The translations under genes were made by a program, and so were the position numbers. The notes beneath the pieces are model-generated. The model ran no database searches. It saw nothing but the letters and a program-made list of their open reading frames with translations, and had not been told where the DNA came from. Below, piece after piece: positions 421 through 32,000 of a stretch of 32,000 nt of DNA (position 1 is its first letter; every line of letters starts with the position of its first letter). Origin of the DNA: Acaryochloris marina MBIC11017 (GTDB taxonomy: Bacteria > Cyanobacteriota > Cyanobacteriia > Thermosynechococcales > Thermosynechococcaceae); assembly GCF_000018105.1 (NCBI RefSeq), contig NC_009925.1, forward strand, positions 330,001 through 362,000. Reading direction: 5' to 3'.

Positions 421-469
421 ACTCTATTATTTTTGCTAATTTTTCAATATTTTTTAAGCCGAGAACACT

Positions 470-1843: not shown

Positions 1844-2199
1844 TATGGACCTCTATCTGCATCTCTAAAGAATATTCAACAGAGAAGGGAATCCCTACAT
1901 TGGCCAACCCAAAAGATAGAGTTTAGTTTAGTTAAATCACTCCAGACCGATCAAGAATTGGGCTTAAAATGACTACCCAATATTTTTCTAGGTTAGGTGC
2001 AGATAAGTAACTGATAACATAGTTTTTCTAGGTTCTTGAATAAGCTTATTTGTGACTTAATCTGAAGTTTGCCTACTATTAACCTTCCTCCTCAGCAGCA
2101 AAAGTTGATCTGCTAATTCTTCAGTATTTGGGTAAATTCATTACCTTTTCTTAAATTAATCACGATAGCCTTAGTCTTAGGCTCATCACCCCATTCTTT

Positions 2200-4383: not shown

Positions 4384-4453
4384 TCATTCCATACGTAAAC
4401 TGGATACATCGGTTCCAACGTCTATTGAAAATAGCTGCTTGTGGACGAAGCGG

Positions 4454-5419: not shown

Positions 5420-5470
5420 TGATTCCCCTACTAAGTCTGGAGCTATTGTCGCAAATATTGCGGGGTGCGA

Positions 5471-5687
5471 TCACATCAGTGAGGTCATTGGCGCAAATTC
5501 GGTTTCTCTGATTTGTCGAGTTTTAACGGGTCGGGCAGGATTGTCTTGTATAAATGGTCATAGGGGCTAGAGACCTGCCTGCAATATTACCAAGACACAG
5601 TACTGAACCTTGACCCATCGTAACCCCTGGCCCGACTATGGTTTTCGCCCTCACCCAGGATCGTGACTCCAGGCGTATGGAAGACAG
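5471..5687 (-). pseudogene. C-terminal relic of a hexapeptide-repeat (LbH) acetyltransferase, 5'-truncated and frameshifted
   Basis: The minus-strand translation reads ...SWVRAKTIVGPGVTMGQGSVLCLGNIAGRSLAPMTIYT. After a 1-nt frame change it continues NPARPVKTRQIRE, the typical GNPA-x-x-(V/I)-K tail of WcaF/LacA-like enzymes. There is no N-terminal half. Its GC content resembles the core, not the island. Confidence 0.4.
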
Positions 5688-5704
5688 TTATAAGGACAAA
5701 TCGG

Positions 5705-7468: not shown

Positions 7469-8311
7469 TTAAGTTCTCATGAAATCATTTACCTTTCCGC
7501 CCCTTCTTTTTGTATCTCCTAAGAATTGCCAACAATCGTAACCTTTAAGAATTTCTGTGGGAACAGCTTTAGGCTCTATTTTTTTCAATAAAGCCTGCCC
7601 ATAACAATCTACAGTAAAATCACAAAAAAACTCAAAGTCATAGCTCCATAACTTTTCAATTAATTTCTTATCTGAGTCTGAAAGAACTAAATCTTTATTT
7701 TCTAGATTCTTATTTAGGTGCTGTAAATTAAAATCTAAACCAATTGATGATTTTAGGTAAGAACAATATTGATAAAGCCTTTCAAAAACACCTAGAGAAT
7801 CACCAATAAATTCTCCATTAGGGTTAATAAAAGCGTAAGACTGGTAAGGAAGTAAGTTTAGATCGCTTAGCCTCATAGCAAACTCGCTAAAACTATCAAT
7901 ATTTCTTTTAAGAAGCATATCTCACTCTGGATATATACGACAATGAAATAGATAATGTCTATAAATAGATAGTGACCATTCATATGGATTACGGATAATC
8001 CCAAACTTAAAATATTGCGAAAAAATTGTTTTAGGAAGTAACAATGAAGCTTGATAGAGTGTTGTATGAGGCCTATGCAAAAAATCATAGAATGGATATC
8101 TGTATGCAAAATCCCCAATTCTTCTGATCATCTTAAATAAAAGACTTTGTTCAATTGGTCGAATTTCTTTTGTTAAAGCTCTACGAATACTTGTTCCACC
8201 TGTCTTAGGATTATGTACAAAAATAAATCTTTTTTTGGTTGATAAATTCATCGCTAGCAACTTTCTGTTAACGTTAATAACCTTATAAAAGAAATTATAA
8301 AGTAAAGACAA
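7469..8311 (-). pseudogene. Family-2 sulfotransferase interrupted by one in-frame TGA
   Basis: ORFs 7922-8311 and 7469-7918 are in the same frame (...RIYPE-TGA-D-MLLKRN...). The N-terminal part has the PAPS 5'-phosphosulfate loop FIFVHNPKTGGTS and the IIRNPYEW block. The combined length of 843 nt equals that of the intact paralog at 24781-25623. Confidence 0.7.
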
Positions 8312-8949: not shown

Positions 8950-9557
8950 CTGCACTGAAAGTACAGAGGTTATTTATCGACTGAAAGTCCGGTTCCTCTC
9001 AGGACTAAAGTCCTGATTCACTCCAGCATGAACGTATCTAAATCGTTATTAGACACGAGACGGTGATGCTCCAAATATTCTTCCACCATCTGTTCACTGA
9101 TATTACCCGTACTCCAGGCCCCATAGCCTATCGCCCACAAATGTTTCCCCCAATATCGCTTCTCTCACTCTCGATACTCTTGCTGAAGGCGTCTTGATGT
9201 TCGTCCTTTCAGACACTTGACGATGTCACTGATCGATTTTGACGGAGGATATTCAATCAGCATATGAACATGATCTTTACTAACTACCCCTTTTAATATG
9301 CGGATATCCTCTGCATCACATATCTGGATAAGCAATTCTCGGCATCGTTTTTGCACTTCCCCTTTGAGCACTTGATAGCGATACTTAGTCACCCACACGA
9401 TATGAACTGTTAAACGGGTGACGGTATGATTCCCACGACGATTCTCGACCATACACTCCTTGATGCTGCTTCTCTATCCTGCATTAGAGGTGTGTAGCAA
9501 CTAAAGTCTCGCACTGAAAGTGCGTAGTTTTGGACTAGCGTGTTTAGGATAATAAAA
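8950..9557 (-). mobile_element. IS200-like (IS200/IS605 family, tnpA-only) insertion sequence
   Basis: It contains a Y1-transposase gene flanked by small hairpins (ctctg..cagag, aggac-taaa-gtcct, gcac-tgaaa-gtgc). The extent is defined by homology to the second copy at 12072-12791. Confidence 0.75.
9018..9452 (-). pseudogene. tnpA: IS200-type TnpA (Y1 transposase) with an in-frame TGA
   Basis: The translation reads ...HIVWVTKYRY...DHVHMLIEYPP...LKGRTSRRLQQEYRE-TGA-EKRYWGKHLWAIGYGAWSTGNISEQMVEEYLEHH. The stop at 9165-9167 lies where the IS200 TnpA consensus (EFP-x-L-RKRYWG) has Leu, consistent with TTA mutating to TGA. Confidence 0.8.
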
Positions 9558-14479: not shown

Positions 14480-15375
14480 TTACTGCTCAAAGTTATCACC
14501 GCTCAAAAACCATTTAGAAATTATTTTTAGATTGAATAATTTATATACACCCCGAATATCAGTACCTAAGACTTTCTTTAAATCAAATACTTCAGAGGTT
14601 TTTTTTCTTATTCTAAGGACCTTGGATACAACATTCCGAACCAAAACTTTCCATAGTGTAGGCGAGATTGATTTTATCGGTACCAAACCATCAATTGATT
14701 CAAGTGTATTCAGCAAAGTTTTATGAGAAAAATGGCTAATATGAGAATGTGGTATCCATTTTGGGAAAGCAGGTTCAAGAGGGTTTACCATATGACTATT
14801 AAAATTATCGGGCATTATTAAGAGATAGCCACCAGATCTAACATATTCAGCCATCTTCGAAATAAATTTCTTCGGATTTTCAATATGCTCGATAACTTCA
14901 AATGAGGTTACTAAATCAAATCCTTTCTTATGAAGGTTCGATAGCTGAAAGTTGTATTAATGACATTCTGATGTAACACCTCGCATGCATAGGTAGATTC
15001 TTCTCTAGATAATTCGACACCTGAAACCTTTATTTTACTATAACGTTTGACTAGCTTTTCTAGCAGAAGACCATAACCAGTTCCAACGTCAAGTAATGAA
15101 TCAATTTTAGTTATATCTAAAAGCGTTTCTAGCGCAATTAGGTTGACTTTAGAATTAACAATTTGGCCTTGTAGATGTCTATTACTACCAAAATTATCCT
15201 CATAATAAGCTTTTAAATCATGTTCAGATAAAATCTTACTTGAAAACTTAAATTTGCAGTCATTGCACTTGACCACTGGTATTTCAGGAAATTGAATATA
15301 ATCTTCCAAGTTACTTGACTGACAAAGTGAGCATTTACTCCGAGCAATTAAATTTCTTGATAGAGTTTTATTCAT
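14480..15375 (-). pseudogene. Zn-ribbon + class I SAM methyltransferase, frameshifted
   Basis: ORF 14911-15375 has CSLCQS...CNDCKF and motif I LLDVGTGYGLL. The family continuation (GFDLVTSFEVIEHIENPKKFISKMAEYVRSGGYLLI) is in another frame that is open from 14956 downward. The lesion therefore lies within 14911-14956. Confidence 0.75.
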
Positions 15376-16826: not shown

Positions 16827-18596
16827 TCAACCCAAGTTTGATGTGATGAGTGGTAAATTATTCTGATATAACAAAGAATCTATATTCCTTTCTTTGTTTA
16901 ATATTTGTGTTGGTATGGGATTAACCTCGTTAAATATTGACAAGATAACTTCAGACTGTAATTTTTCCATATGTTTTCCTGTCAATGATACATTTTTGAG
17001 CGACATCTTCGATCTCATTATCCACCTAGGCAATAAGTCTTGGCATGCAATTTCCAGCAAAGATCGATCCCAGGACATTAGATAGAATGCTTCTGGAATT
17101 CTTAGTAAAAGTTCAAGAAGTCGATGGTCAAATAACGGTAGTTTTGTTTCTATCCCAACTATTCGTTCCATTTGATCAATGTCCCGCAATAGAAACGGCT
17201 CTACATATCCAAACAAATCGTTCCAAAAGATTCTTGGTAAAAATTGTGTAAGTCGACACGATGGGGGCTTTGGCCAATCAAGAGCCTGTAAATTGGTCGT
17301 TTTTAACTCTGCATTAGTGGCAAGGCGATGGCCTGCCAAGAGGAGATGCCACGCATCTAACCAAGGAGCATCTTCAGCCATAGAAAATAAACGGGAATTC
17401 ATTACCTGCATAACCTTTGGCCACAATTCAAAAACTCTTAATCTGGCAAGTCGTGCCATCAAAACTAATCCACTTAGGTGAACTCCTAATGCTTTTTGAC
17501 TTTCAAAACCAAACATTATCGTTTGGACACCTGATCGCTTTAATGCATTTCCAATCACACAACTATGAGCAGCTTGGAAACTTGGTAATTCTAGAGTCTT
17601 AATAGCCTTAGTAAAAAATTCGATATATTCTTTACTACTGATATAAATTTCTTGATGAAATGCTCCGATGTGGTTTGCAAAATCCGTAATACCATTTTTT
17701 GGTATAGAAGAGTCTTGGATATGTACTGAGAATGTTTTAATTGGCTTAGAACTATGCTGAGCAGCAAGAGCTGCAACGATTTTGGAGCTGGAATCGTTCG
17801 TGAGCAAGCAATTAATAGGTCTATCACTGGAAATATGTTCTTGAATTACTCGCTCAAGTTCTTGCCGAATCAGCTTCACCGCATCACGACGTCGTTTGAT
17901 AGGTAAAGGAGTCCAATCTGGTCGGGGAGACGGGGGCCACCAACGCAAAAAAGTTGGCGAAGAGTCAGGTCCAATTCTCATAAGGGTTCCAGGAGGAAGA
18001 GGGTAAATCCCCTCACCTAATTCACCTTCCATTGGATAGTATCCAAAACTAAGATAATGGCTAACACAGGAAGGTGCTAGTTTAAGCTTATCCTGGAATA
18101 ATTGACGTACATTAGAAGAAAAACACAGCTTCGTGTCTTGTTTTTGCCACCAAAGAGATTTAACACCAAGGCGATCTCGAGCCAGTAGCAACTGTCTAGT
18201 CTCAGTATCGTAGAAAGCAAAGGCAAAGACTCCTCTCAGGTCAACTAAGAGTGAAGTATTTCGTTGAGCTAAGCCTTCAACCAGAGTTTCAACATCACTA
18301 TTTCCCTTCCAGATCTGATTCCGAAGTCCTCGACGAATTTCTAAATGATTATTGATGTGTCCACTAAAGACAAGTACATACCGACCACAATGGGACCGAA
18401 TAGGCTGAGATGCAACATCGTTCTGTTGATTTGATAAGTTTCGACTGTATTGAAGCCAGCAGTAGCGATCTTGACTAGTCCAAGAAGATTCTCCAGGAAT
18501 CCTACTCTTGTATGATGAATTCTTACATGATGAATAAGTTAAAGGTGATGAATGGACTTCTTCCTCTATAGATAAACAACCCGTAATCTCAGACAT
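16827..18596 (-). CDS. Asparagine synthase (AsnB)-like protein with degenerate glutaminase and PP-loop motifs
   Basis: AsnB-like blocks are present: LARDRLGVKSLWW, TFSVHIQD and LLRDIDQMERIVGIETKLPLFD. The start is taken at ATG 18596 (MSEITG...), 5 nt after the upstream stop; the ORF-track start at 18638 would overlap that gene by 37 nt. Confidence 0.8.
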   Translation of the reverse strand: MSEITGCLSIEEEVHSSPLTYSSCKNSSYKSRIPGESSWTSQDRYCWLQYSRNLSNQQNDVASQPIRSHCGRYVLVFSGHINNHLEIRRGLRNQIWKGNSDVETLVEGLAQRNTSLLVDLRGVFAFAFYDTETRQLLLARDRLGVKSLWWQKQDTKLCFSSNVRQLFQDKLKLAPSCVSHYLSFGYYPMEGELGEGIYPLPPGTLMRIGPDSSPTFLRWWPPSPRPDWTPLPIKRRRDAVKLIRQELERVIQEHISSDRPINCLLTNDSSSKIVAALAAQHSSKPIKTFSVHIQDSSIPKNGITDFANHIGAFHQEIYISSKEYIEFFTKAIKTLELPSFQAAHSCVIGNALKRSGVQTIMFGFESQKALGVHLSGLVLMARLARLRVFELWPKVMQVMNSRLFSMAEDAPWLDAWHLLLAGHRLATNAELKTTNLQALDWPKPPSCRLTQFLPRIFWNDLFGYVEPFLLRDIDQMERIVGIETKLPLFDHRLLELLLRIPEAFYLMSWDRSLLEIACQDLLPRWIMRSKMSLKNVSLTGKHMEKLQSEVILSIFNEVNPIPTQILNKERNIDSLLYQNNLPLITSNLG

Positions 18597-18601
18597 ACGT
18601 T

Positions 18602-19789
18602 TTAACCTACTGCAATTCTTATTGCATCTTGGTAACATCGTTCATATTCAAGTAAAGAATGCTCAAGCGAGAAACGTCCTGCATGGTTGATCCTTTCTTT
18701 TTTCTTAGCCTCTTTTAAATCAGAAGGTATTGTTAAAACTTCTTGCAGCACATCGGCAGCTTGTTTAGCCCAATTCAATTGCTCATCTTCAGAATCAGGG
18801 TAGGTAGAGATGTAATTTGCAACATCTCCACCGACTTCAGTCATAGGTTGAGCATTCGTTGTAAGAACTGGACATCCGCAAGATAAAGCTTCTAACACTG
18901 GCCAACCAAAACCTTCAAATAAGGAAGGAAAAACAAGAGCTTCGGCTAGACTATACAAGGATTGCAATTGATTAAATGAAACATTCTGAAGAAAAATTAC
19001 CTTTGCACTCAACTGTGGATGATTATTGAGCCAAGCTAATAATTCTCTCGTAGGCTTACTAACCATTACCAAATAAATTTCTGGTTCCTTAAAAGCCAAC
19101 TGCTCAAATATTTGTAAAACACCTAATCGATTTTTATACCAGTTGCTGCCTATGTGTAAAATAAACTTTTTCCCTTCGCCACCTGTCCACAACCCCTTAA
19201 GCTCTGACCAAGAATTATGTGAAGGGAATGGCGTAAAAGGACTATTCAAAGGATTATAAACGACTTTTGAAAGCTCTGCAGGTGCTGGCAAAAAACGATG
19301 TAAATCAGTTTGAGTTGCATTTGATACTGAAACAAAACATTTCCCTTGCGAAAATCCCCAGCGAATCAGTTGCTGATACAAACGTCCCGTAAAACTAGGT
19401 TTATGGTGCAAAATTTCTCCCAATGAACCTCGTAATGCTAAGAAGTCATGACAATGGATAACATGGGGGCGGTTTTTGATAAAAGGTACCCATATGCCTA
19501 AAGCTTGGTCGCTTAACACCATCAAACTATTTGGTGGTAAATTTCTTTTACACCAGAGGATCAATAGAGGAAAAATCAGATATTGATCAATATAACCCAA
19601 CCACTTAAATAAGAACGGAACTGGTTTCCCTAAGGCTCCTACTATAACGGGAGGTTTCCAATATTCAACTGTATGGCCTCTCTTCTCCATTCCTTCAGCT
19701 ATAAGAGCAGAAAACTTCAACATACTTTTGCCATAATTGCTGTAGAGAGAGTAATGGATTAATAGGATAATATGCAACGGTTGAGTCAT
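18602..19789 (-). CDS. GT4-family glycosyltransferase
   Basis: The E-x7-E region reads FPSLFEGFGWPVLEALSCGCPVLTTN. The start abuts the upstream gene stop with no gap. Confidence 0.9.
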   Translation of the reverse strand: MTQPLHIILLIHYSLYSNYGKSMLKFSALIAEGMEKRGHTVEYWKPPVIVGALGKPVPFLFKWLGYIDQYLIFPLLILWCKRNLPPNSLMVLSDQALGIWVPFIKNRPHVIHCHDFLALRGSLGEILHHKPSFTGRLYQQLIRWGFSQGKCFVSVSNATQTDLHRFLPAPAELSKVVYNPLNSPFTPFPSHNSWSELKGLWTGGEGKKFILHIGSNWYKNRLGVLQIFEQLAFKEPEIYLVMVSKPTRELLAWLNNHPQLSAKVIFLQNVSFNQLQSLYSLAEALVFPSLFEGFGWPVLEALSCGCPVLTTNAQPMTEVGGDVANYISTYPDSEDEQLNWAKQAADVLQEVLTIPSDLKEAKKKERINHAGRFSLEHSLLEYERCYQDAIRIAVG

Positions 19790-21994: not shown

Positions 21995-23557
21995 TTAGGC
22001 TAATTTTAAACTTCTACTGACTGCAACGAGCATTTTACAAAAAATAAGGTACAGAAATATTACCTGCATCCATTCTCTAAAAATAAATATTGATAAATCG
22101 ACTATTGATCCTACATTAAAAATGGTAAAAAATGAATAAATATTTATTATTGCAACTGGTGAAAATATTGGGTTTTGAGAGCAACTAACATTAGTTATTA
22201 CAAGTGCATCCAAGAGTATAAAAATTATTATTGACAATATACCTAGAAAAAATAAATATAAAAATCCAAACGCCGCTAGGCTAGTTCCAAAGAAATGACC
22301 AATCCAAAACCTACCTAAGAAATATTTATTTCTTGTAATCAAGAAAAAAAGCTGATCACCCCAACTTACACTCAGCGCTTGTTTTTTAAACTCTGAAGAA
22401 AAACCTAAAAAACTAAGAAATGGAGCTGGAAAAATAGAGAGCAGTCGATTAATTGAAAATTCTCTAAATTCAATCCGAGATGCATGATCTAATTGATTCC
22501 CTAATTTCAATGATATATCTGCAAACTTTAAATTTACAAAACGGCGCAAGAATGGATTGCTAAGATATTTTTCATCATAGCCACTTAGGCGATCAACATC
22601 TGTTTTAACCCTATATTGTTCAATGCTTTCTATATCTGATAACTGATCTATTGTTTTAACTAACAATTCCTCTGATGGAATATCTCTGCGCAAGGCTCTT
22701 ACCATAACCATTGAAGTAGCTAGATTAGAAGCTAGTGGCACTATAAAAATAATGAGAATTAGAATTGAAACAATAACTTTAAATCTAATTTTTATGTATT
22801 GATATATCCATAAAAGAAAAACACCAATTCCATAGGTTGCGATGGGTATTGCAAAAGTAGCACGAGAATTTCTTCCTAAAGCAACAATAAAAATCAATAC
22901 CAAAAACAGAAAGTTGAGCAACCAATCTACTTTAGTAACTTTTTTGCTCTCATTACACAATTGAATTAATAATGCAGTTAAAGGGAAATAAGCAAAATTA
23001 ATAAAACCTTGTATAAGTTTAATGATGGCTACATCATTTCCTCTATTCAACCAGTAGACTAAAATCATAGAGATCAATCCAAAGAAACTTAATATAGCTA
23101 TGCTAAAAGTATCTAACTTTTGGAAAATATTTAAATTTCTATCAAGATAGAGGGTAATTTTTTGTCTTATTATTTGGAATAGATTAGTTTGAGTATATAT
23201 AAAATGAGAAAAAATTAATGTTCCAGTACATAAAACAATATGAAGAAATAGATCTTCAGGAACTTCTAGATCATAGATAATTGGGCGCTGCTCTAATGCA
23301 GTTAGCAACAAAGGTCCTAGAGCATAAAGGATGCAATACCCAGTTAAGGCTAGAGAGGAAATTGGAAACTTATACCATTGGTAGGGTTGATAAAGATAAA
23401 GAATAAACAAATTACTAACAGCTGCAGCTATAAATGAATAGTTTGCATTAGATGTTTCAGTATTAATAGCTATCTGAGTAAACAAACCTATCCATGGTAA
23501 AGCCAATACGAATGGACGAGTTTTACTAAAAAAATAATTAGATCTGATTAATGACAT
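21995..23557 (-). CDS. Polytopic membrane protein, Wzy/O-antigen-ligase-like polymerase candidate
   Basis: The 520-aa protein has about ten or more hydrophobic segments and a soluble loop of roughly 110 aa. It has an LGRNSRATF-type motif reminiscent of Wzy_C proteins. No stronger signature was recognised. Confidence 0.5.
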   Translation of the reverse strand: MSLIRSNYFFSKTRPFVLALPWIGLFTQIAINTETSNANYSFIAAAVSNLFILYLYQPYQWYKFPISSLALTGYCILYALGPLLLTALEQRPIIYDLEVPEDLFLHIVLCTGTLIFSHFIYTQTNLFQIIRQKITLYLDRNLNIFQKLDTFSIAILSFFGLISMILVYWLNRGNDVAIIKLIQGFINFAYFPLTALLIQLCNESKKVTKVDWLLNFLFLVLIFIVALGRNSRATFAIPIATYGIGVFLLWIYQYIKIRFKVIVSILILIIFIVPLASNLATSMVMVRALRRDIPSEELLVKTIDQLSDIESIEQYRVKTDVDRLSGYDEKYLSNPFLRRFVNLKFADISLKLGNQLDHASRIEFREFSINRLLSIFPAPFLSFLGFSSEFKKQALSVSWGDQLFFLITRNKYFLGRFWIGHFFGTSLAAFGFLYLFFLGILSIIIFILLDALVITNVSCSQNPIFSPVAIINIYSFFTIFNVGSIVDLSIFIFREWMQVIFLYLIFCKMLVAVSRSLKLA

Positions 23558-24780: not shown

Positions 24781-25623
24781 TCAAGAAACTCTCTTAAAAA
24801 AGCCTGACGAAATTTCTTCATACCCTTTTGGAAAACATGATTTTGAATTTTCAAAAGAAAAATTATCAGTCTGATAGCCTAATTCATAAAAGTCTCTAGA
24901 AAAGATTCTATTTATTTTAAGAACAATTTCATTGCTATTTAGAATTTCATACCAGAATGAATCTTTAGATAGTGAATTAGGATAAGTTTCCCAAGCAAAT
25001 TGATCAACAGGAAGTGTAATATATTGAATAAAACTCTTGAGAGCATCATTTAAGTATTCATACTGCAAGATATAGTCAGATGAAATTCCTGAAAAATTAG
25101 TATCTAGAAATTCTACTTGCAAGTTAAAATGCGATATCATGCTATGTCTACATTTTCCCAAAAGAGTATCACTTCCAATTTCTCCATAGCTCCTTATATT
25201 TTCTATCTCAGTAATAAACTTGTCAAATAAAATAGATGCCTCGCTTTTATCCCTATAGTTTTTCTTACACCAATGATGAAAAAGTGATAAAGTTCTAGAA
25301 AAAGGGTTTCTAATTACAGCAAACTTATCTGCATTTTTAAAGAATTCAATTGAACTCAATCGTAATGAAACCATCTCTTGTAAGGTGCAATGGCCCATAT
25401 AAAGTGGATAGTCATACATACCCATTTTCGGAGAAAAGTTCAGACTATGGCGATTTGAACGTTGAGAGAAAAATCTCCCAACGTTGCCGATAAGATTACG
25501 TTGGACTAGCTTATTATTTCTCTTGTTTGATAAATCAAAAATATTTAAAGCACTAGTTACACTTTTACCTGCGTTTTTAGGAATATGGATAAATACAAGG
25601 TTTAATTCTTCACTTATAGCCAT
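24781..25623 (-). CDS. Family-2 sulfotransferase (intact)
   Basis: The PAPS-binding loop reads LVFIHIPKNAGKSV and the 3'-phosphate block reads AVIRNPFSRTLSLF. The length is the same as the interrupted paralog at 7469-8311. Confidence 0.75.
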   Translation of the reverse strand: MAISEELNLVFIHIPKNAGKSVTSALNIFDLSNKRNNKLVQRNLIGNVGRFFSQRSNRHSLNFSPKMGMYDYPLYMGHCTLQEMVSLRLSSIEFFKNADKFAVIRNPFSRTLSLFHHWCKKNYRDKSEASILFDKFITEIENIRSYGEIGSDTLLGKCRHSMISHFNLQVEFLDTNFSGISSDYILQYEYLNDALKSFIQYITLPVDQFAWETYPNSLSKDSFWYEILNSNEIVLKINRIFSRDFYELGYQTDNFSFENSKSCFPKGYEEISSGFFKRVS

Positions 25624-25744: not shown

Positions 25745-27544
25745 TTAGTTAGTTTTAGCCAAAGAACGAAATGTATGTGAATTTTCTAAAAGAGAATTAT
25801 AGGTGCCATTATCAACCAACTTACCGAAAGAAAATTCATAAATTAGATCACATTTTTCTACTGTTGAAAGACGGTGAGCAATCATAATAATCGTTAAATT
25901 ATCATTACCTGATAATAATGTACTAATAAATTCTCTCTCAGTCTTATTATCAAGAGCACTAGTTGCCTCATCTAACAATAAAACTCGTGCTCCCTTATAC
26001 AAAGCCCTAGCAATTCCTATTCTTTGTCGCTGTCCTCCACTTAGGCCTATGCCCCTTTCACCAATAGTTTCAAAATATCCAAGCGCTTGATCCTCTATAA
26101 AGTTACTAACTTGTGCCTTTTGAGCTGATTCCTTAACTCTTAACAGATCTATCTCCTGCATAGGAACCCCAAATGCTATGTTTTCGGCAAAACTAGCATC
26201 ACTTAAATAGATATACTGAGGAACATGGGCAATATAATGTCGCCAAGCCTTCATCAAATCAATATCTTCAGATGCATTGTATCCATCCAAAATCAAGCCA
26301 CCCTTAGAAGGCTTCAACAATCCCATAATCAGATCAACAATAGTACTCTTACCGCTACCCGTTGGTCCAACAAAACCAACCCGACTCCCGATCGGAATCC
26401 TTAGATTTAGATCCTTGATTACCCAATCTCCAGCACTTTGGTATCGAAACCAAACGTCCCTCAGCTCAATATTTTTCTCAAGAATTAAATCTTCACTTTT
26501 TGTAGAAATAAGTGAGTCTAAATTTTCCCTATGCTGGGTTCCTTCTAAATAGGGCAGCAGACGCTCTATAGATGAGGAGTTGGATTTGATGGATGCCAAC
26601 GCCACAAATACATTTTGCAGCGGTTGTAAGATTTTGTAAGCTCCAAGCGTAAAGGAACCCAAGACAGGAATGATATTGCTAATATTTTTACCTTGAAGTA
26701 CTAGAATAAATACTAATCCTGAAATCAATAAAATTGTGATTCCTTCAATTAAATATCTTGGAATTTGAGCCTTAAAATTAATTCTTGCGACCGCTTGACG
26801 AGATATATTTACGGACTGACTATAGTCATTTAAGAAAACACTCTGGCTATCATCCAACAAAATATCTCGAATCCCACCCAGACTTTCTTGCAAAGTCTTA
26901 ATCGACCGTTGGTGACTTTCAATTCTTTCTTTTCCTTCCCTATAAAATGTTCCTCTAGTTAAGCGATAGATAATAATATAACTGCTGCCGAGAATAAATG
27001 TCGCAAATAGGGTTATATGTGGTGAGATCAAAACTAAAGTTAGTCCCAAACTTAAAACAATTAATGAACTTAAAATTATATTTAGTCCTGATAGAATAAC
27101 AGTTCTAACTTGATTAACGTCTTCTGTTAAGCGAGTGATAACCTCACTACTATTATGAGTTATATGCCATATATAAGGTCGCTTTAGCAGATTATCAAAA
27201 CTACTTATAGATAGATCAGCAGCAATATTTGCCGTTAGCTTTTGTTGAACCCATATTGTGTAAATCCTAACAACCGTGCTAAATACGACAATAACGAGAA
27301 AAATTATTCCCATGCCAAGAATAATATTATTTTCATGCATTCTAGACAACCCAGAGAAACCAATAGGCAAACTCTCAATTATTTTTTTAGGATTCAGAAC
27401 AGCTTGCAGAAATGGATAAAGAGAGCCTAAACTTCCAATCTCTAAAAAAGAGGATAGGATACTCAATGCCAGAAAAAATAGTAACTCAAGACGGCGATTT
27501 TTACTGAGATAAGGCAATAAAGAAAAAGCAGAAAAATTCATCAA
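25745..27544 (-). CDS. Fused permease/ATPase ABC exporter (MsbA/PglK/McjD architecture)
   Basis: An N-terminal domain of about six TM segments is followed by Walker A GPTGSGKST, signature LSGGQRQRIGIARAL, Walker B LLLDEATSALD and the H-loop IAHRLST. Confidence 0.9.
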   Translation of the reverse strand: MMNFSAFSLLPYLSKNRRLELLFFLALSILSSFLEIGSLGSLYPFLQAVLNPKKIIESLPIGFSGLSRMHENNIILGMGIIFLVIVVFSTVVRIYTIWVQQKLTANIAADLSISSFDNLLKRPYIWHITHNSSEVITRLTEDVNQVRTVILSGLNIILSSLIVLSLGLTLVLISPHITLFATFILGSSYIIIYRLTRGTFYREGKERIESHQRSIKTLQESLGGIRDILLDDSQSVFLNDYSQSVNISRQAVARINFKAQIPRYLIEGITILLISGLVFILVLQGKNISNIIPVLGSFTLGAYKILQPLQNVFVALASIKSNSSSIERLLPYLEGTQHRENLDSLISTKSEDLILEKNIELRDVWFRYQSAGDWVIKDLNLRIPIGSRVGFVGPTGSGKSTIVDLIMGLLKPSKGGLILDGYNASEDIDLMKAWRHYIAHVPQYIYLSDASFAENIAFGVPMQEIDLLRVKESAQKAQVSNFIEDQALGYFETIGERGIGLSGGQRQRIGIARALYKGARVLLLDEATSALDNKTEREFISTLLSGNDNLTIIMIAHRLSTVEKCDLIYEFSFGKLVDNGTYNSLLENSHTFRSLAKTN

Positions 27545-27698: not shown

Positions 27699-29000
27699 CT
27701 AAGCGGTAATTGTCTTTTGAGCCTCAGAGTCTAAATCTTGATTTACTAGCTTTCCAGTGAAAATAAGTTTTCGCAATTTGCTCTCAAACTGACTCAATAC
27801 CTGCTCTCGGTCCCAATGGGATAAAGCATATTTTCGACCCTCACTACCTAACTTTTGTCTTTTTTGATGATGATTTGCCAAATCAGCTATTGCCTTAGTC
27901 AACTCTTGGACCTCTTCTGGAGGAACGGCAACACCACAGGTTTGTACAATATTAAATACTTGAGTACCAGGATAGGCCGTTGCAATAACAGGCCTTCCAG
28001 AGGCTAACATCGCTTTTAGCTTTGAAGGTAAAACCAAGTCTCCAACACCTGATGCTTGAGGAAGCAAATGAATATCAGCCATATTTAACAACGCATTGAA
28101 ACGTTCTGATGGCTGTAAATCTAAGAAATAAATGTTTGACAAACAACGGGCTTGCTCAACCAGCACCCTTTTCATTGGACCTTGTCCAGCAATTACAAAT
28201 ACGATCTTTTCAGTGCATTCAAGAATTCGAGCAGCTTCTATAAGGATACTTATTCCTTGCTTAGCACCTAAGTTACCAGAATAGAGGCATACAATCTTGT
28301 CTTCTGATATACCTAATTGTGCACGGTACTCATTTGTTTCATTTATAGGATGGATCGCATTACAATCTACCCAGTTTGGGAAGTATACACACTTATCTAG
28401 CTTTACTCCTTTCTGATAGAGCCGCAAGCTCATTTGAGCACTGATGGTTGAAACAACCTGTACTTTCTGCATTAACCAGTTTTCAATAGATCCCACTAAT
28501 ACAGTTAATCGAGGAAAGCTTGGCAATAAACCCAGAGAGAAACCTGCATCAATTTCAAAGTCTTGTACATGTAGCCAAACTTTAAACTGAAATATTTTTG
28601 ATGCAATCAAAACTGCTGGTAAACAAAAGATCGGAGGTTCTACCAAGAAGATGATGCTCTCAACTCCAGATATCTTTTTTTTGAAAATCAGCCAAATAAA
28701 CTGTATTGCACTTGAAATTGCAAAAGAAAACAAGTGCAATATGCGATTAATACCGGAAAGTTTTTTAGGCAACCAAACTGGACAACGATGGACCGAGACC
28801 AAGCCATAGTGATTACACGAGTAACGCCAGCCAGAAAACCCTGGACTTAATTCCCAACTAGGGTAATAAGGGGGGGCACATACAACATCAACATCATAAC
28901 CCTCATTTACCAGCCAATTCGCCATCTCGGTATTATACTTTCCAATTCCAATCAACTCAGGGAAATAGTTCAGACTGTAAATCAAAATATGTGGCTTCAT
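27699..29000 (-). CDS. WcaI-like GT4 glycosyltransferase
   Basis: The N-terminus MKPHILIYSLNYFPELIGIGKYNTEMANWL is characteristic of the WcaI family. Confidence 0.85.
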   Translation of the reverse strand: MKPHILIYSLNYFPELIGIGKYNTEMANWLVNEGYDVDVVCAPPYYPSWELSPGFSGWRYSCNHYGLVSVHRCPVWLPKKLSGINRILHLFSFAISSAIQFIWLIFKKKISGVESIIFLVEPPIFCLPAVLIASKIFQFKVWLHVQDFEIDAGFSLGLLPSFPRLTVLVGSIENWLMQKVQVVSTISAQMSLRLYQKGVKLDKCVYFPNWVDCNAIHPINETNEYRAQLGISEDKIVCLYSGNLGAKQGISILIEAARILECTEKIVFVIAGQGPMKRVLVEQARCLSNIYFLDLQPSERFNALLNMADIHLLPQASGVGDLVLPSKLKAMLASGRPVIATAYPGTQVFNIVQTCGVAVPPEEVQELTKAIADLANHHQKRQKLGSEGRKYALSHWDREQVLSQFESKLRKLIFTGKLVNQDLDSEAQKTITA

Positions 29001-29546: not shown

Positions 29547-30719
29547 TTATTTTGAGAAAGGCATCGTCATAACTTTAGCTCGGTAGAAGTTATCAAACAA
29601 GTAGTACCAAACAAAGTCAAATAAAACCTTCTGCTTATAGTAAAAGCTTTCAAGCATCTGCATCTTCATAAATTGAAAGCGGATTTTCATGCTAAACGTG
29701 CGTCTAGATACAGGACTATTTTTTAAGCTCAGATCAATTTGACCAATCAAATCAGATATAATTTGATCAGTCAAAATCATATTTTCAATTGAGTCGGATA
29801 AATCAATATCAAAGTAGCTTTTACATAGAGCTAGGCCTAGTAGTAATCTACGCCTGCATCGAAGTTCCTGAGACAGCTTCAATACATCAGGCCAGTTAAG
29901 AGTCGGGTTATTATCAACTAAATTAGCTACATCATAAATCGCTTGAAACTTTTTCCATCCATCTTGAGAGTTATGGATACACAGAACGTTGAGTAAATCC
30001 TCAGTTTTTAGGCTTTGGTAGTATTGCTGTTGTAGCTTTATTTTCAACAATCGATCAGAAAAAATTTCAAAGGATTCGGGACAGTATTTTGAAATATTCT
30101 GGTGTAAATCAATAAATACATTGCAGTCTTGCTTCCTTTTCCCAAAAGATATTTCATGAGCAATAAAATCATAGTGAAAATTCTTAATTATCTTGTAGAG
30201 AATCGAATAATTCCATCCTTGGTTTACATAAGGAGAACGATAATTAAGACTAATCAGTAGATTTACACAACGTTTAAAGTCTTTTCTTGAAACTAAAAAA
30301 TCTAAGTCACAGAACTGTCTAGCATGAGTACCTCCGTAAGCAATCTGCGCAAGTGTTGGCCCTTTGAAAGGGATCACATCAATATCATGGGTTTCAAACA
30401 GGTTCAATAACTGTTTAAGTTCTTCCACATGTAAAGTATTTTTTAAAGTGATTTCACAAGAATACTTTCTAAGGCTAGCAAGCAGATAATCTGGAATATT
30501 TTTATGAGTATGTTGCTTAAGACATTGGTATACGGGTGGTATTACTTTATGGAACTTAGTTAACCTCAAAAAATGGTGCCAATCAATACTATGATGATCT
30601 AGTATCGCATTAATTTTAAAATACCTAGTTTGTGATTTTAATTGAAGACAGGATAAAAGCAGCTTTTGCTCATTAGAGAATTCAGTAGAACTTCTTTTTT
30701 TCAGTTTTATATAAATCAC
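29547..30719 (-). CDS. NTP_transf_5-like (uncharacterised nucleotidyltransferase family) protein
   Basis: The block IPFKGPTLAQIAYGGTHARQFCDLDFLVSRKDFKRCVNLL fits the remembered family pattern (KG..L....Y.....R...D.D.LV). It is co-oriented with the kinase gene and 50 nt downstream of it. Confidence 0.7.
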   Translation of the reverse strand: MIYIKLKKRSSTEFSNEQKLLLSCLQLKSQTRYFKINAILDHHSIDWHHFLRLTKFHKVIPPVYQCLKQHTHKNIPDYLLASLRKYSCEITLKNTLHVEELKQLLNLFETHDIDVIPFKGPTLAQIAYGGTHARQFCDLDFLVSRKDFKRCVNLLISLNYRSPYVNQGWNYSILYKIIKNFHYDFIAHEISFGKRKQDCNVFIDLHQNISKYCPESFEIFSDRLLKIKLQQQYYQSLKTEDLLNVLCIHNSQDGWKKFQAIYDVANLVDNNPTLNWPDVLKLSQELRCRRRLLLGLALCKSYFDIDLSDSIENMILTDQIISDLIGQIDLSLKNSPVSRRTFSMKIRFQFMKMQMLESFYYKQKVLFDFVWYYLFDNFYRAKVMTMPFSK

Positions 30720-30769
30720 AAAACGATAGCAATATCAATTTCAATATACAAATAATCTAAAGATACTTA

Positions 30770-31654
30770 CTAACAAAGAGGCATTAATCTTCGATGATAT
30801 CCTTGTTCATGAATCTGGATTTTCTCAACGGTTTTTGATATTGAATTTAGATCGAGAGGTCTTGTAAGTAAATAGACTGGTACCTTCTTAAGCAGGGCCG
30901 TACATTGCTCAAAGTGAAGCTTCACAAACTGAGGATGAATTAGTTCCTTAGTTGCTCGAGAATTTTTTAAAATCTCTAGAAATGCTTGCTGTGGATTAAG
31001 CTTGATAATAGAAAATTCCTTCCCTTGATTAAGGACATAGATACTTGATAAGGGTAGGGCAGGAAATTCTTTTTGAGGAAGAAGGTGAACCTTCTTAGAA
31101 GAGTAGCCGTATATTGATTTAAGCTTATCAGGCTGATGTCCCATTGCAATAGCGGAATCAGGCCATAACTTGATCCGGGGGATGCTGGGTAGAACAGTTG
31201 GAAAATCGGAAGCAAATTGAATGGCTAATACATCGTCAGTAATTACCGAGCAATCATGATGATGGAATGCTTCTGCCAAAGTGGACTTGCCAGCCTTCGA
31301 ATGACCTAAAAATGCAGTAGCAGCATTTTGTAATACAACACAGCTTCCATGCAAAACAAGCTGACCTTGTTGGCGAAGAAGAATAGTAAAAATTGGCCCA
31401 TAGAGTATGGATCGAACTAAACCGATTTCGACATTAGCAAAAGGCTCAATGACTATTTCTTGTCCTTTATACACAAGGAAACGAAGAATGTTCGATATTC
31501 TACCTCGAAAACAGAAGCCAGCATCATGCTTATGATGGTATGTTGCTAATTTATCAATCTTTAGTACTACATCTGGGCGTCCATCTGCTTCAACAAGCTC
31601 AGGCAAGTAAATATCTGACTGAATACAGAAACCAAACACCGAATAGACTGGCAT
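30770..31654 (-). CDS. HPr kinase/phosphorylase-like (HprK-related) P-loop kinase
   Basis: The block LHGSCVVLQNAATAFLGHSKAGKSTLAEAF...VITDDV is a Walker A in the HprK_C-like context. The N-terminal Y-x-V-F-G-F-x-I-x-S pattern is typical of HprK-related kinases. Confidence 0.8.
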   Translation of the reverse strand: MPVYSVFGFCIQSDIYLPELVEADGRPDVVLKIDKLATYHHKHDAGFCFRGRISNILRFLVYKGQEIVIEPFANVEIGLVRSILYGPIFTILLRQQGQLVLHGSCVVLQNAATAFLGHSKAGKSTLAEAFHHHDCSVITDDVLAIQFASDFPTVLPSIPRIKLWPDSAIAMGHQPDKLKSIYGYSSKKVHLLPQKEFPALPLSSIYVLNQGKEFSIIKLNPQQAFLEILKNSRATKELIHPQFVKLHFEQCTALLKKVPVYLLTRPLDLNSISKTVEKIQIHEQGYHRRLMPLC

Positions 31655-31687
31655 ATCAAGTTTATTGATATAGTTAATAGCTTGATA

Positions 31688-31722
31688 TTAAAGAGGAAAG
31701 AACTAATTTCTTCCCTCTTTAA
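31688..31722 (-). promoter_or_regulatory. 15-bp stem-loop between the peptide gene and the kinase gene
   Basis: The minus-strand RNA reads UUAAAGAGGGAAGAA / AUUAG / UUCUUUCCUCUUUAA, with one G:U pair and otherwise perfect pairing. It begins 14 nt after the peptide stop codon and has no strong U-tail. Confidence 0.5.
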
Positions 31723-31735
31723 TGGTAAATTCTGC

Positions 31736-31900
31736 CTAACCGTCATCAAGTTCCGGAGCAATTACAGCTGCAGATTCAAAATCATCATCAACTTCTTCAA
31801 ATTGTTCTTCAAACTCCCTAGCTTCATCATCAAATTCTTGTGTGATACCTACTAAAGAACCAAAGGCAGTCAACTTAGGTGTTGAAAATTTCCGTTTCAT
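31736..31900 (-). CDS. 54-aa precursor-like peptide (lasso-type leader motif + polyacidic tail), absent from the ORF track
   Basis: My own translation is MKRKFSTPKLTAFGSLVGITQEFDDEAREFEEQFEEVDDDFESAAVIAPELDDG. The ORF has an ATG start, GGAG 10 nt upstream and a TAG stop. It shares the strand of the kinase gene and lies 81 nt upstream of it. An open frame this long is unlikely by chance in AT-rich DNA. Confidence 0.6.
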   Translation of the reverse strand: MKRKFSTPKLTAFGSLVGITQEFDDEAREFEEQFEEVDDDFESAAVIAPELDDG

Positions 31901-32000
31901 AATTCAAAAGCTCCAAATAGCGTGTGGATTAGTTAAGGCATGTTCAACGAGAATGAATTAAGTTTAGTAATTCGCAATCTATCGAAAAATTTATATCAAA

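Follow-up and report, generated by a model that had tools for sequence, protein, structure and literature searches.

A lasso-precursor homologue, a kinase and a nucleotidyltransferase in an exopolysaccharide locus of Acaryochloris as a candidate source of a linear phospho(glyco)peptide

Kinase-tailored lasso peptides and the Acaryochloris locus

Lasso peptides are defined by their cyclase. In canonical cyanobacterial clusters, which have the order B1-B2-C-A-K-D, the cyclase (C) is encoded together with a PqqD-like protein (B1, the recognition element) and a transglutaminase-like protease (B2, which acts on the leader); in Nostoc sp. CHAB 5844 (L010), B1, B2 and the cyclase score 82, 109 and 1046 bits, respectively. 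The kinases that tailor lasso peptides carry a His-Lys-Asp-Asp motif (PMC9266682; PMC6993621) and use the linear precursor as substrate, not the threaded lasso (PMC9266682). Those of the paeninodin type (PadeK, ThcoK and SyanK) require a conserved C-terminal Ser, the pade cluster contains no nucleotidyltransferase and the product is a threaded lasso. In the pseudomycoidin cluster (psmC-A-K-B1-B2-N-D) of Bacillus pseudomycoides, PsmK is the phosphorylating enzyme and PsmN places a hexose on the phosphate, and the D158A/D159A and D134A/D136A mutants are dead (PMC6993621).

We analysed a window of 32,000 nucleotides from the chromosome of Acaryochloris marina MBIC11017 (330001-362000) and an extension of 10 kb beyond position 32000 of the window (L001). 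Three ORFs, AM1_0390, AM1_0389 and AM1_0388, lie in the same orientation on the minus strand, the first separated from the second by 81 nt and the second from the third by 50 nt. An earlier prediction, made from the letters of the window, had placed a 54-aa ORF at 31900-31736 with these gaps and this shared orientation, all of which the sequence bears out. It had also noted that lasso-tailoring kinases phosphorylate and that a PsmN-type enzyme decorates the phosphate, in agreement with the literature (PMC8498205; PMC6993621).

The Acaryochloris module has in common with the psm cluster a precursor, an HprK-like kinase and an NTP_transf_5-type enzyme like PsmN, as well as the Asp-Asp metal site of the kinase and the DxD of the nucleotidyltransferase, and the pseudomycoidin succession of Ser phosphate and then hexose is the model used here. 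In contrast to that cluster, it has no cyclase, B1, B2 or dedicated exporter, its acceptor cannot be a C-terminal Ser, its peptide core has 33 residues of which 16 are Asp/Glu, and it lies inside a Wzc-type polysaccharide locus. With the paeninodin type it shares the kinase family and the His-Lys-Asp-Asp motif, and it is unlike that type in each of the three features named above. Its nearest evolutionary relatives are the canonical cyanobacterial clusters (kinases 35-44% identical), although the B1, B2 and cyclase scored in Nostoc have no counterparts at the module.

Cyanobacterial loci for sulfated exopolysaccharides, such as the synechan xss cluster, are Wzx/Wzy- or ABC-dependent, and the host locus resembles them in its Wzc-type co-polymerase, GT4/GT2 glycosyltransferases, sulfotransferases, methyltransferases and flippase or ABC exporter. 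To our knowledge, no cyanobacterial sulfated exopolysaccharide locus with a ribosomal precursor peptide and RiPP-type tailoring enzymes has been described. The HPr-rel-A and HprK-related kinase A and B families (TIGR04352, TIGR04355 and TIGR04353) often occur near exopolysaccharide loci of Proteobacteria, and the HPr-rel-A kinase, whose function is unknown, resembles AM1_0389 in lying beside polysaccharide genes, there with peptide-chaperone-type proteins. Membership of AM1_0389 in this group was considered and rejected: it reaches 18.5 bits with HprK_rel_B against a cutoff of 200 and has no PqqD (PqqD_rel_X) partner. Our literature search found no paper on the HPr-rel-A system.

The precursor-like peptide and its two enzymes

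AM1_0390 (54 aa; 31736..31900, minus strand; GenBank ABW25447.1) matches the 35-position lasso_cyano model NF033528 over its residues 1-28 (E 4.7e-7), with 29.7 bits, about 3 bits below the curated cutoff of 33 bits. A score under the cutoff fits its deposit in GenBank as a 'hypothetical protein'; the original prediction had taken the gene for unannotated. The peptide aligns end to end with canonical cyanobacterial lasso precursors, the leaders being nearly superimposable and the tail Ser-x-x-[GA]-[VI]-[VI]-x-P shared. Judged by the profile match and the full-length alignment, AM1_0390 is a lasso-precursor homologue, as had been supposed. In its lasso-type leader, MKRKFSTPKLTAFGSLVGITQ, the residues F5, P8, L10, G14 and T20 are conserved in 8/8 orthologues, which fits the motif Y/FxxPxLxxxG with Thr at -2. 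The acidic core, EFDDEAREFEEQFEEVDDDFESAAVIAPELDDG, contains Ser43, the sole Ser that is invariant across the orthologues. This Ser is internal (motif DD[FI]ES); in the alignment it falls on the Ser that canonical kinase-associated cyanobacterial lasso precursors conserve in their GSx[DN]G tail. The orthologues end in G, an acidic residue (E) or H, never in Ser, so the paeninodin rule of a C-terminal Ser acceptor, which the prediction had brought in, does not hold for the Acaryochloris peptides.

A lasso core calls for a small first residue and for Asp/Glu at a fixed place within positions 7-9. In canonical cores the first residue is Ala and the Ala1-Asp9 spacing is fixed, whereas the AM1_0390 orthologues have a variable spacing and, in 8/8 cases, Glu at core position 1. 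Indels change the length of the stretch corresponding to the canonical ring by between -3 and +6 residues, with acidic residues available at positions 7-9; Asp at position 9 is kept in L089, L090 and L094. In place of the canonical hydrophobic loop there is an EDREREE-type acidic stretch. The Glu at position 1 and the indels suggest that the constraint of forming a lasso ring has been relaxed in these peptides.

The order Wzc-peptide-kinase-nucleotidyltransferase was found at one chromosomal site in eight Acaryochloris loci, with different glycan genes after it, so that the small ORF is conserved beside the orthologous enzyme pair, the neighbourhood that the prediction had proposed to look for. 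The eight loci come from one lineage with flanking genes 90-100% identical, and their synteny is partly shared descent. Between the loci, dS is at least about 0.8, exceeds 1.4 for the most part and is saturated in places, and the three ORFs are intact in all eight. The dN/dS of the peptide (0.11-0.50 over the eight syntenic loci), similar to that of both enzymes, indicates that AM1_0390 is under purifying selection. The glycosyltransferase that follows the nucleotidyltransferase is only 21-24% identical in 5/7 comparisons (window versus L089, L090, L092, L093 and L094); therefore, the conserved unit comprises Wzc, peptide, kinase and nucleotidyltransferase and excludes the glycosyltransferase string. 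Between the window and L087, the glycosyltransferase, ABC and sulfotransferase genes are 91-94% identical but the peptide, kinase and nucleotidyltransferase only 64%, showing that the module is not tied to the glycan type. The adjacency of the three genes survives where both flanks recombine.

AM1_0389 (294 aa; 30770..31654, minus strand) is an HprK-like P-loop Ser kinase whose P-loop GHSKAGKST (residues 117-125; 31280-31306) and H102, K123, D140 and D141 are intact. Across 19 homologues, G117-T125, H102, K123 and D141 are present in all and D140 in at least 90%. Its profile matches the HPr kinase structures 3tqf, 2qmh, 1jb1 and 1ko7 at E about 1e-6, and Foldseek paired the AF2 model (pLDDT 93) with PEPCK and HprK/P at probability 1.0; the modelled fold is of the HprK/PEPCK type. 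An HPr-kinase-like P-loop protein had been called here, and the motif, the invariant His-Lys-Asp-Asp and the profile and fold matches all agree with this. The Acaryochloris kinases form a monophyletic clade nested among the kinases of cyanobacterial B1-B2-C-A-K-D lasso clusters (the L010 cluster was verified), and AM1_0389 is 31% identical to the kinase of the psm-type Bacillus locus L084. Its sequence thus marks it as a PadeK/PsmK homologue with an intact His-Lys-Asp-Asp motif, for which phosphotransfer to a peptide is predicted.

AM1_0388 (390 aa; 29547..30719, minus strand, GTG start) matches PF14907 (NTP_transf_5) at E 2.6e-60 with 204.5 bits against a cutoff of 31.2, which substantiates the earlier assignment to NTP_transf_5-like nucleotidyltransferases. 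The residues K119-G120, D138-x-D140, H206 and D263 are intact, D138 and D140 being invariant. Foldseek with the AF2 model (pLDDT 87) retrieved LnuA, ANT(2'')-Ia and, weakly, FKRP; the PsmN fold has likewise been reported to resemble ANT(2'')-Ia (PMC6993621). The protein is 22-32% identical to nucleotidyltransferases within lasso clusters, including that of L084 (26%). By these matches, AM1_0388 is a PsmN homologue with an intact DxD.

A Shine-Dalgarno-like GGAG (31911..31914, minus strand) was read from the sequence 10 nt before the ATG of AM1_0390, and GGAG precedes the peptide ATG in 4/4 orthologous loci read. In the spacer between peptide and kinase lies a 16-bp stem-loop (31687..31723, minus strand; MFE -21.5 kcal/mol, z -3.87); 0/200 shuffles fold as well. 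Significant stem-loops of unrelated sequence occupy the same place in L090 (z -3.87) and L094 (z -4.16), the stem of L087 is non-significant (z -1.59), and L089 and L092 have no stem. This structure may be a partial terminator or a stabiliser of the mRNA, either of which would set the ratio of peptide to enzyme mRNA high. In published RNA-seq data, AM1_0390 is the top protein-coding transcript of A. marina, at 96,439 versus 2,696 for the kinase AM1_0389, or about 36 times (PMC5295598), which answers the call for an expression check on the small ORF. AM1_0385-0391 are all down under microoxia and up under hyperoxia (PMC5295598); this co-regulation is weak evidence, as many top transcripts in the same data set drop under microoxia (PMC5295598). 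Conservation in eight syntenic loci, the dN/dS values, the GGAG and the transcript rank together establish that the small ORF is more than a chance reading frame.

Lasso enzymes and host polysaccharide genes

Verified lasso B1, B2 and C proteins were the starting point for iterated HMMs; all three genes are present at about 64-70 of the 79 related kinase loci in other genomes. The B1 model matched 70 loci of the searched set but none of the window, L001, L087, L089 and L090, and the B2 model matched 64 loci, with no match among the Acaryochloris polysaccharide-type loci. A lasso cyclase was absent from the window plus L001 (42 kb) and from L087, L089 and L090. The three lasso partners had been reported as missing nearby, and the B1 and B2 models likewise came back empty over the 32-kb window. 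The suggestion that the partners might lie beyond position 32000 fails for the next 10 kb: this stretch contains genes for a Wzc-type co-polymerase, an epimerase, a response regulator and a PAS histidine kinase as well as a small Cys-rich ORF, but none for B1, B2 or C. Conservation across the loci does not extend to any dedicated peptide exporter.

An AsnB-like amidotransferase homologue (16827..18638, minus strand; asn_synth_AEB 172.6 bits) lies 13 kb away among glycosyltransferase genes, its coordinates overlapping an upstream GT4 gene. It had been described as degenerate, and in its N-terminus, MSEITGC, the nucleophile Cys2 is indeed replaced by Ser. As a stand-in cyclase it was rejected: it scores 70.3 bits with lass_lactam_cya (cutoff 525), compared with 1046 bits for the true cyclase of L010, and 352 bits on the cyclase HMM, on which intact full-length cyclases reach at least 444; in L089 and L090, the first 10 kb downstream of the kinase contained neither an AsnB-like gene nor a cyclase homologue. 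On these scores it is not a lasso cyclase, and it probably modifies the glycan.

The glycan string that had been proposed downstream of AM1_0388 was recovered by profile search (GT4/GT2 genes, Sulfotransfer_2, an ABC exporter and the AsnB-like gene). The WcaI-family GT4 AM1_0387 (27699..29000, minus strand; NF007640, 506 bits) opens the part of the glycan region that varies between strains, as the strain comparison shows, and counts as context rather than as a conserved partner. AM1_0386 (25745..27544, minus strand) is a fused ABC exporter of the MsbA/PglK/HepA-like type with full-length PglK and MsbA matches in NCBIfam. It is probably a glycan flippase or exporter, since in L089, L090 and L093 the 10 kb read downstream contain a PF01943 Wzx gene but lack an ABC exporter. 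The sulfotransferase AM1_0385 (24781..25623, minus strand; PF03567, E 4.3e-8) suggests that the polysaccharide is sulfated. A 520-aa membrane protein (21995..23557, minus strand) with about 10 hydrophobic segments in a hydropathy scan and no Pfam or NCBIfam match is a candidate Wzy-like polymerase. Directly upstream of AM1_0390 stands the Wzc, with GNVR plus AAA_31/ParA domains. With this Wzc co-polymerase/BY-kinase, glycosyltransferases and a flippase or exporter, the host locus has the features of a Wzc-dependent exopolysaccharide locus. The ORFs between 5.8 kb and 42 kb include no priming phosphoglycosyltransferase of the Bac_transf or WecA type, and the enzyme may be encoded elsewhere. The locus also holds methyltransferases, has a low GC content and varies between strains. 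Its distal end shows signs of decay in the form of a truncated sulfotransferase, what looks like a split methyltransferase and an IS200 fragment.

What the module may make

The explanation we favour, which we hold to have somewhat better than even chances, is that AM1_0390-0388 are a lasso-derived RiPP-type module without B1, B2 and C that makes a linear phospho(glyco)peptide associated with the polysaccharide locus. Peptide mRNA would be produced in large excess over the enzyme mRNAs, aided by the hairpin after the gene. The HprK-like kinase would then phosphorylate the linear peptide, most likely at Ser43, since no other Ser is invariant; the characterised kinases depend on a Ser at the C-terminus, and an internal target is predicted here from the alignment. 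The PsmN-like enzyme would, by analogy with PsmN in the making of pseudomycoidin, cap this phosphate either with a hexose or with a nucleotide to be exchanged afterwards. The result would be an abundant, very acidic, linear phospho(glyco)peptide without a lasso, probably a new kind of linear modified peptide. As the module lies between Wzc and the glycan genes and shares their oxygen response, the peptide may act with or in the extracellular polysaccharide layer. The leader motif, which B1/B2 read in lasso systems, is strictly conserved, implying that something must still bind it; with no B1/B2 in sight, the module bears on what role the leader plays for the kinase and nucleotidyltransferase.

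If so, the module is a natural split of tailoring from lasso formation, in which precursor, kinase and nucleotidyltransferase persist under selection after the knot-forming enzymes were lost, and an internal Ser may be within reach of this kinase family. Of all protein-coding transcripts reported for A. marina, the most abundant one, which is strongly oxygen-responsive, would gain a candidate function. Peptide content of cyanobacterial exopolysaccharides has long been noted; were the product attached to, or organising, the sulfated polysaccharide, such peptide would become directly testable. Cluster finders that require a cyclase, and the NF033528 cutoff, missed here by about 3 bits, will overlook such modules.

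It is possible, though unlikely, that AM1_0390 is instead an acidic regulator, a chaperone or an RNA and that the two enzymes work on sugars or carrier lipids of the glycan pathway. The transcript level in the range of regulatory RNAs, the lack of a C-terminal Ser, the lack of a recognisable leader-binding domain nearby and the lack of a biochemically defined NTP_transf_5 reaction in the literature would suit this idea. However, homology to genuine precursors, which adjoin the same kinase family in dozens of lasso clusters, extends along the entire peptide, and the adjacency of the peptide to kinase and nucleotidyltransferase persists despite recombination of both flanks. Purifying selection at the amino-acid level also speaks against it and rules out a purely RNA function.

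We consider it distinctly improbable that the sulfated polysaccharide has the Ser43-phosphate-sugar peptide as its covalent primer or aglycone, extended by the glycosyltransferases into a bacterial proteoglycan on a RiPP-type precursor. In 8/8 loci the trio lies precisely between Wzc and the first glycosyltransferase, no priming enzyme was found in the stretch from 5.8 kb to 42 kb, PsmN chemistry yields a phosphate-linked hexose, and the nucleotidyltransferase fold weakly resembles FKRP, a phospho-alcohol transferase of glycan synthesis. The AM1_0390 mRNA abundance is like that of a stoichiometric product, and a primer role, if true, would explain why this is the most strongly transcribed protein-coding gene reported. 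Nevertheless, the Wzx flippases of three strains and Wzc handle undecaprenyl-diphosphate-linked repeat units, not peptides; AM1_0403, AM1_0407 and further polysaccharide-related genes just outside the region read may include a priming enzyme; and the window and L087 differ in the module (64%) while sharing their glycan genes (91-94%).

Maturation of AM1_0390 into a lasso peptide in trans, with B1, B2 and C supplied from another place in the genome, is very unlikely. The strict conservation of the leader motif and Thr at -2, the Asp at core position 9 of L089, L090 and L094 and the occurrence of lasso cyclases in some Acaryochloris strains (CCMEE 5410 and IP29b; L049 among the loci) would accord with it. 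Yet none of the best 120 cyclase homologues lies on a contig as long (6,503,724 bp) as the one that carries the window genes, and the plasmid matches are all <60% identical, with no Acaryochloris plasmid among the matches listed. Moreover, core position 1 is Glu, the ring stretch differs in length by up to 9 residues among the orthologues, and canonical clusters bring their own precursors, often in several copies. It is scarcely credible that the module is what is left of a lasso cluster, now decaying while caught in a recombining polysaccharide island: B1, B2 and C are gone and the island decays distally, but the three ORFs are intact in eight loci despite high dS and at dN/dS 0.11-0.50, the catalytic residues of both enzymes are invariant and AM1_0390 gives the highest protein-coding transcript reported in the cell.

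The trio and its enzyme families

Three ORFs, all in the same orientation on the minus strand, occupy positions 29547-31900. The peptide ORF (31900-31736; 54 aa, MKRKFSTPKLTAFGSLVGITQEFDDEAREFEEQFEEVDDDFESAAVIAPELDDG) has a GGAG 10 nt upstream of its ATG and is followed after 81 nt by the kinase ORF (31654-30770; 294 aa) and after a further 50 nt by the nucleotidyltransferase (NTase) ORF (30719-29547; 390 aa). When the sequence was read again, the small ORF, both gaps and the shared orientation were all as originally predicted. The peptide gene had been described as unannotated; an exact-sequence look-up identified it as AM1_0390 (ABW25447.1) of Acaryochloris marina MBIC11017, deposited as 'hypothetical protein'. 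Its published coordinates, 361900..361736 (PMC5295598), put the window at chromosome positions 330001-362000. A GenBank entry thus exists and what is absent from it is the function. A sigma-70 promoter scan gave fewer matches than in shuffled sequences, and none that could serve as a promoter of the peptide gene.

The kinase, AM1_0389, has no Pfam match itself, and PF07475 (Hpr_kinase_C) is found on its homologues. The top structures for a 19-sequence kinase profile were the HPr kinases 3tqf, 2qmh, 1jb1 and 1ko7 (E about 1e-6), and the AlphaFold model (pLDDT 93) is similar to PEPCK and HprK/P. The PF27840 label (ScmC/ScmA) on the kinase refers, according to NCBIfam names, to the SynChlorMet cassette. 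Mutagenesis has demonstrated that a His-Lys-Asp-Asp motif is essential in lasso-tailoring kinases (PMC9266682; PMC6993621), and the conserved residues His102, Lys123, Asp140 and Asp141 are its counterparts in AM1_0389.

The NTase, AM1_0388, belongs to PF14907 (NTP_transf_5; E 2.6e-60), with K119-G120, D138-x-D140, H206 and D263 invariant. Searching the PDB with its sequence gave no match, and the structural leads come from a fold search only, in which the model (pLDDT 87) resembled LnuA and ANT(2'')-Ia and, more weakly, FKRP. PsmN, the NTase of the pseudomycoidin system, has likewise been reported to resemble an ANT(2'')-Ia-type fold (PMC6993621). The paeninodin kinase PadeK and the pseudomycoidin kinase PsmK transfer phosphate onto the C-terminal Ser of the linear precursor (PMC6993621; PMC9266682), and PsmN is required for the addition of one or two hexoses to that Ser phosphate in pseudomycoidin (PMC6993621). 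These papers bear out what the original prediction says of the lasso-tailoring enzymes. Literature on PF14907/NTP_transf_5, HprK-related or HPr-rel-A systems yielded nothing useful.

Lasso partners and the origin of the module

We extended the window past position 32000 with an identical Logan contig (L001). The possibility that lasso partners lay there did not hold: upstream of the peptide gene are instead a 725-aa Wzc-type co-polymerase (GNVR and AAA_31/ParA), a small Cys-rich ORF, an epimerase, a response regulator and a PAS histidine kinase. HMMs for the PqqD-like recognition element (B1), the leader protease (B2) and the lasso cyclase (C) were iterated from the proteins of L010, a canonical Nostoc cluster verified with NCBIfam (B1 82 bits, B2 109, cyclase 1046, lasso_cyano precursor 45.6), and matched 70, 64 and 68 loci, respectively, of the set searched. 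They found neither B1 nor B2 in the window, in L001, or in the Acaryochloris loci L087, L089 and L090, in agreement with the predicted absence of both partners nearby.

The sole window match to the C HMM is the AsnB-like gene (18638-16827, minus strand). On this HMM it reaches 352 bits, against at least 444 for intact full-length cyclases; its lass_lactam_cya score is 70 bits (cutoff 525) and its asn_synth_AEB score 173 bits. Its protein has the nucleophile Cys2 replaced by Ser and keeps the synthetase domain, its coordinates overlap the upstream GT4 gene, and in L089 and L090 the 10 kb retrieved downstream of the kinase gene showed no homologue. Taking these scores, the Cys2 replacement, the gene context and the absence from the related strains' fetched sequence together, we rejected it as a hidden cyclase; it probably encodes a glycan-pathway enzyme that is ammonia-dependent or an amide ligase. 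A role of the ABC exporter as a dedicated lasso exporter was unsupported as well, as it matches PglK over its full length whereas the L010 lasso exporter does so partially, and three strains have a Wzx gene, with no ABC exporter seen in the 10 kb read.

A kinase-homologue scan of one genome per species with a 12-sequence alignment gave 79 loci at 30-44% identity. About 64-70 of these have B1, B2 and C genes beside the kinase, together with an ABC exporter; some also hold an NTase, and three or four GT4 genes occur in a few Nostocales clusters. A neighbour-joining tree places the Acaryochloris kinases in a single clade within the cyanobacterial lasso-cluster kinases. This nesting, together with the presence of B1, B2 and C at most relatives' loci, indicates that the trio is a lasso-cluster derivative.

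Six Nostocales loci (L021, L024, L025, L026, L031 and L034) contain a canonical B1-B2-C-precursor-kinase-exporter cluster followed, on the opposite strand, by an NTase and two to four GT4 genes. This arrangement hints that some cyanobacterial lasso peptides may bear oligosaccharides on the phosphate, and it is possible that such clusters are intermediate towards the Acaryochloris arrangement. What may be a second cyclase-less arrangement is seen in L048 (9986-12079) and also in L029, L039, L043, L044, L045 and L052, spanning Acaryochloridaceae, Thermosynechococcaceae, Stenomitos and Altericista. Four of these loci (L048, L029, L039 and L044) have a match to the PqqD (B1) model after a kinase paralogue, and in L048 this match is the C-terminus of a 388-aa protein; the L048 neighbours are housekeeping genes (psbO, topoisomerase, rsmB and a sigma factor). 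Among loci of this type, a lasso-leader-like peptide lies nearby in L039 only (MKMKKTWNVPKLFNYGTVETMTQVLASDLQQINKF...).

Conservation and expression at the polysaccharide island

Kinase homologues of at least 49% identity were found only in Acaryochloris-lineage assemblies, from which eight distinct loci were fetched (L001, L087, L089, L090, L091, L092, L093 and L094). All eight share the upstream order FemAB-like gene (cut by the locus end in L090 and L093), PAS histidine kinase, response regulator, epimerase, small Cys-rich ORF (not called in L091) and Wzc, followed by a DUF218 gene in some, the peptide, kinase and NTase genes, a glycosyltransferase, and then differing glycan genes (ABC exporter or Wzx, sulfotransferases, methyltransferases and assorted glycosyltransferases). 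A conserved small ORF thus accompanies the orthologous kinase/NTase pair in every one of them. Identity to the window is 90-100% for the flanking regulators and epimerase, 57-82% for Wzc, 47-64% for the peptide, 50-64% for the kinase, 39-65% for the NTase and, in five loci, 21-24% for the following glycosyltransferase. These values define Wzc-peptide-kinase-NTase as the conserved unit, which heads a hypervariable polysaccharide island. The WcaI-like glycosyltransferase was rejected as a fourth member, being non-orthologous in five of the seven other loci compared.

Comparison of L087 with the window (L001 7377-19660) gave 91-94% identity for the glycosyltransferase, ABC and sulfotransferase genes, 98-100% for the flanking regulators and 80% for Wzc, but 64-65% for peptide, kinase and NTase, showing that the island is mosaic. 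Between these two A. marina strains, the trio behaves like a separately exchanged, deeply diverged allele. A JGI metagenome scan with a profile of the polysaccharide-type kinase revealed no further such loci (best match 35% identical), and the polysaccharide-type module is to date known only from the Acaryochloris lineage.

The GC content is about 29-41% in the island (window 5770-32000) and 46-53% in the flank at 1-5700 (MatE, PhoX and glutaminase). Low GC is usual for horizontally exchanged surface-polysaccharide loci. Distally, the island shows signs of decay, with a truncated Sulfotransfer_2 ORF (129 aa, 7922-8311) and an IS200-type transposase fragment (95 aa, 9165-9452); at 14480-15375, a 154-aa methyltransferase ORF (14911-15375) and a 124-aa ORF without family match look like a split gene.

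RiPP operons typically make the precursor in large excess over the enzymes. In published RNA-Seq data, AM1_0390 is the fifth most abundant of all transcripts and the first of the protein-coding ones, at 96,439 in the control (PsaC, for comparison, 47,437), 7,619 under microoxic and 297,265 under hyperoxic conditions (PMC5295598). In the same order, the values are 3,159, 779 and 5,940 for AM1_0391 (Wzc), 2,696, 964 and 4,677 for AM1_0389 (kinase), 11,750, 2,198 and 18,184 for AM1_0388 (NTase), 3,075, 451 and 5,455 for AM1_0387 (glycosyltransferase), 3,407, 783 and 8,069 for AM1_0386 (ABC), and 5,395, 1,411 and 15,261 for AM1_0385 (sulfotransferase) (PMC5295598). Peptide mRNA is thus about 36 times as abundant as kinase mRNA, a ratio that fits a hairpin in the spacer between the two genes (31723-31687, minus strand; 16-bp stem, z -3.87). 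In the same spacer, L090 and L094 each have a significant stem-loop whose sequence is unrelated; the stem in L087 is weaker and falls short of significance, and L089 and L092 lack one.

Upstream of Wzc, the conserved Cys/His-rich ORF (93/140 aa; CPxHxC ... CEEC, zinc-ribbon-like, without Pfam match) lies at L001 6771-7193, about 2.4-2.8 kb past window position 32000 (MBIC11017 about 364.4-364.8 kb). It is contained in the region of AM1_NC37 (364322-365501), reported as a highly expressed 'intergenic sRNA' (level 29,258; PMC5295598), and this RNA may be the mRNA of the ORF.

The peptide and its possible modification

On the best-supported reading, the trio is a tailoring module that derives from a lasso cluster and has no cyclase. 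Its kinase would phosphorylate linear AM1_0390, most likely at Ser43, and the PsmN-like enzyme would then cap the peptide phosphate. The resulting phospho(glyco)peptide would be linear, acidic and abundant, and would act together with the polysaccharide layer. The analysis shows the homology, the intact motifs, the loss of B1, B2 and C, the conservation and the expression; from these we infer the tie to the polysaccharide, as well as the modification and its site, the fate of the leader, and export.

Residues 1-28 of the peptide match NCBIfam NF033528 (lasso_cyano; E 4.7e-7) at 29.7 bits, just missing the cutoff of 33. In an alignment of the Acaryochloris orthologues with canonical precursors adjoining kinase homologues, the two sets of leaders superimpose. 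All eight orthologues share a leader, MK+[KT]FxxPxLTxFGxxxxxT, followed by one residue and an invariant Glu, then a spacer that differs in length among them, an EDREREE-like acidic run, the motif DD[FI]ES[AI][AG][VI][VI]xP[ED]L, and an acidic, Gly or His C-terminus; Asp and Glu make up 16 of the 33 core residues in AM1_0390. Canonical cores start with A-F-G-x5-D, while the Acaryochloris cores start with Glu and have a stretch up to three residues shorter or up to six longer. The one Ser that is invariant among the orthologues falls, in the alignment, opposite the Ser of the canonical GSx[DN]G[VI][VIL][IV]P tail. Indels in the ring stretch together with a kept tail Ser are expected if the ring constraint has been lost and the tail Ser is still important. 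Since the leader motif is strictly conserved without a visible B1 or B2, some protein must still read it; the reader could be the N-terminal beta domain of the kinase, the helical N-terminus of the NTase, or a trans-acting factor.

The foremost alternative is that AM1_0390 is unrelated to the kinase and NTase. Next in weight, AM1_0390 might be a covalent primer of the polysaccharide. It is suggestive that no priming phosphoglycosyltransferase was found in the 36 kb of the locus examined, although this is weak evidence because further polysaccharide-related genes, such as AM1_0403 and AM1_0407, are located immediately outside that region. Should the peptide prove to be part of the polysaccharide, for which the chance is small, this would be something categorically new. 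Lasso maturation of AM1_0390 in trans ranks third. A search with the cyclase of L049, an Acaryochloris relative, turned up lasso cyclases of strains CCMEE 5410 and IP29b; among its best 120 matches, none was on a contig with the length (6,503,724 bp) of the one bearing the window's genes, and the plasmid matches listed were all below 60% identity, with none from Acaryochloris. Weakest is the view of the module as a decaying relic; the dN/dS of the peptide is 0.11-0.50, that of the kinase 0.14-0.18 and that of the NTase 0.17-0.32.

All three gene families of this putative tailoring module are already known, as are phosphorylated and phosphoglycosylated lasso peptides. To our knowledge, the literature searched does not describe the persistence of precursor, kinase and NTase without lasso machinery, their fixed place at the head of a Wzc-type hypervariable polysaccharide island, or, for such a module, the departure from a C-terminal Ser and the extreme expression.

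The lasso_cyano-type precursors beside kinase genes in Nostocales and related cyanobacteria (L009-L023, L047 and others) have no terminal Ser. The C-terminal-Ser rule of Firmicutes may not be valid for this cyanobacterial family. These precursors have the GSx[DN]G[VI][VIL][IV]P tail internally, and the precursors themselves are often repeated in tandem, with two to four copies per locus (four in L012).
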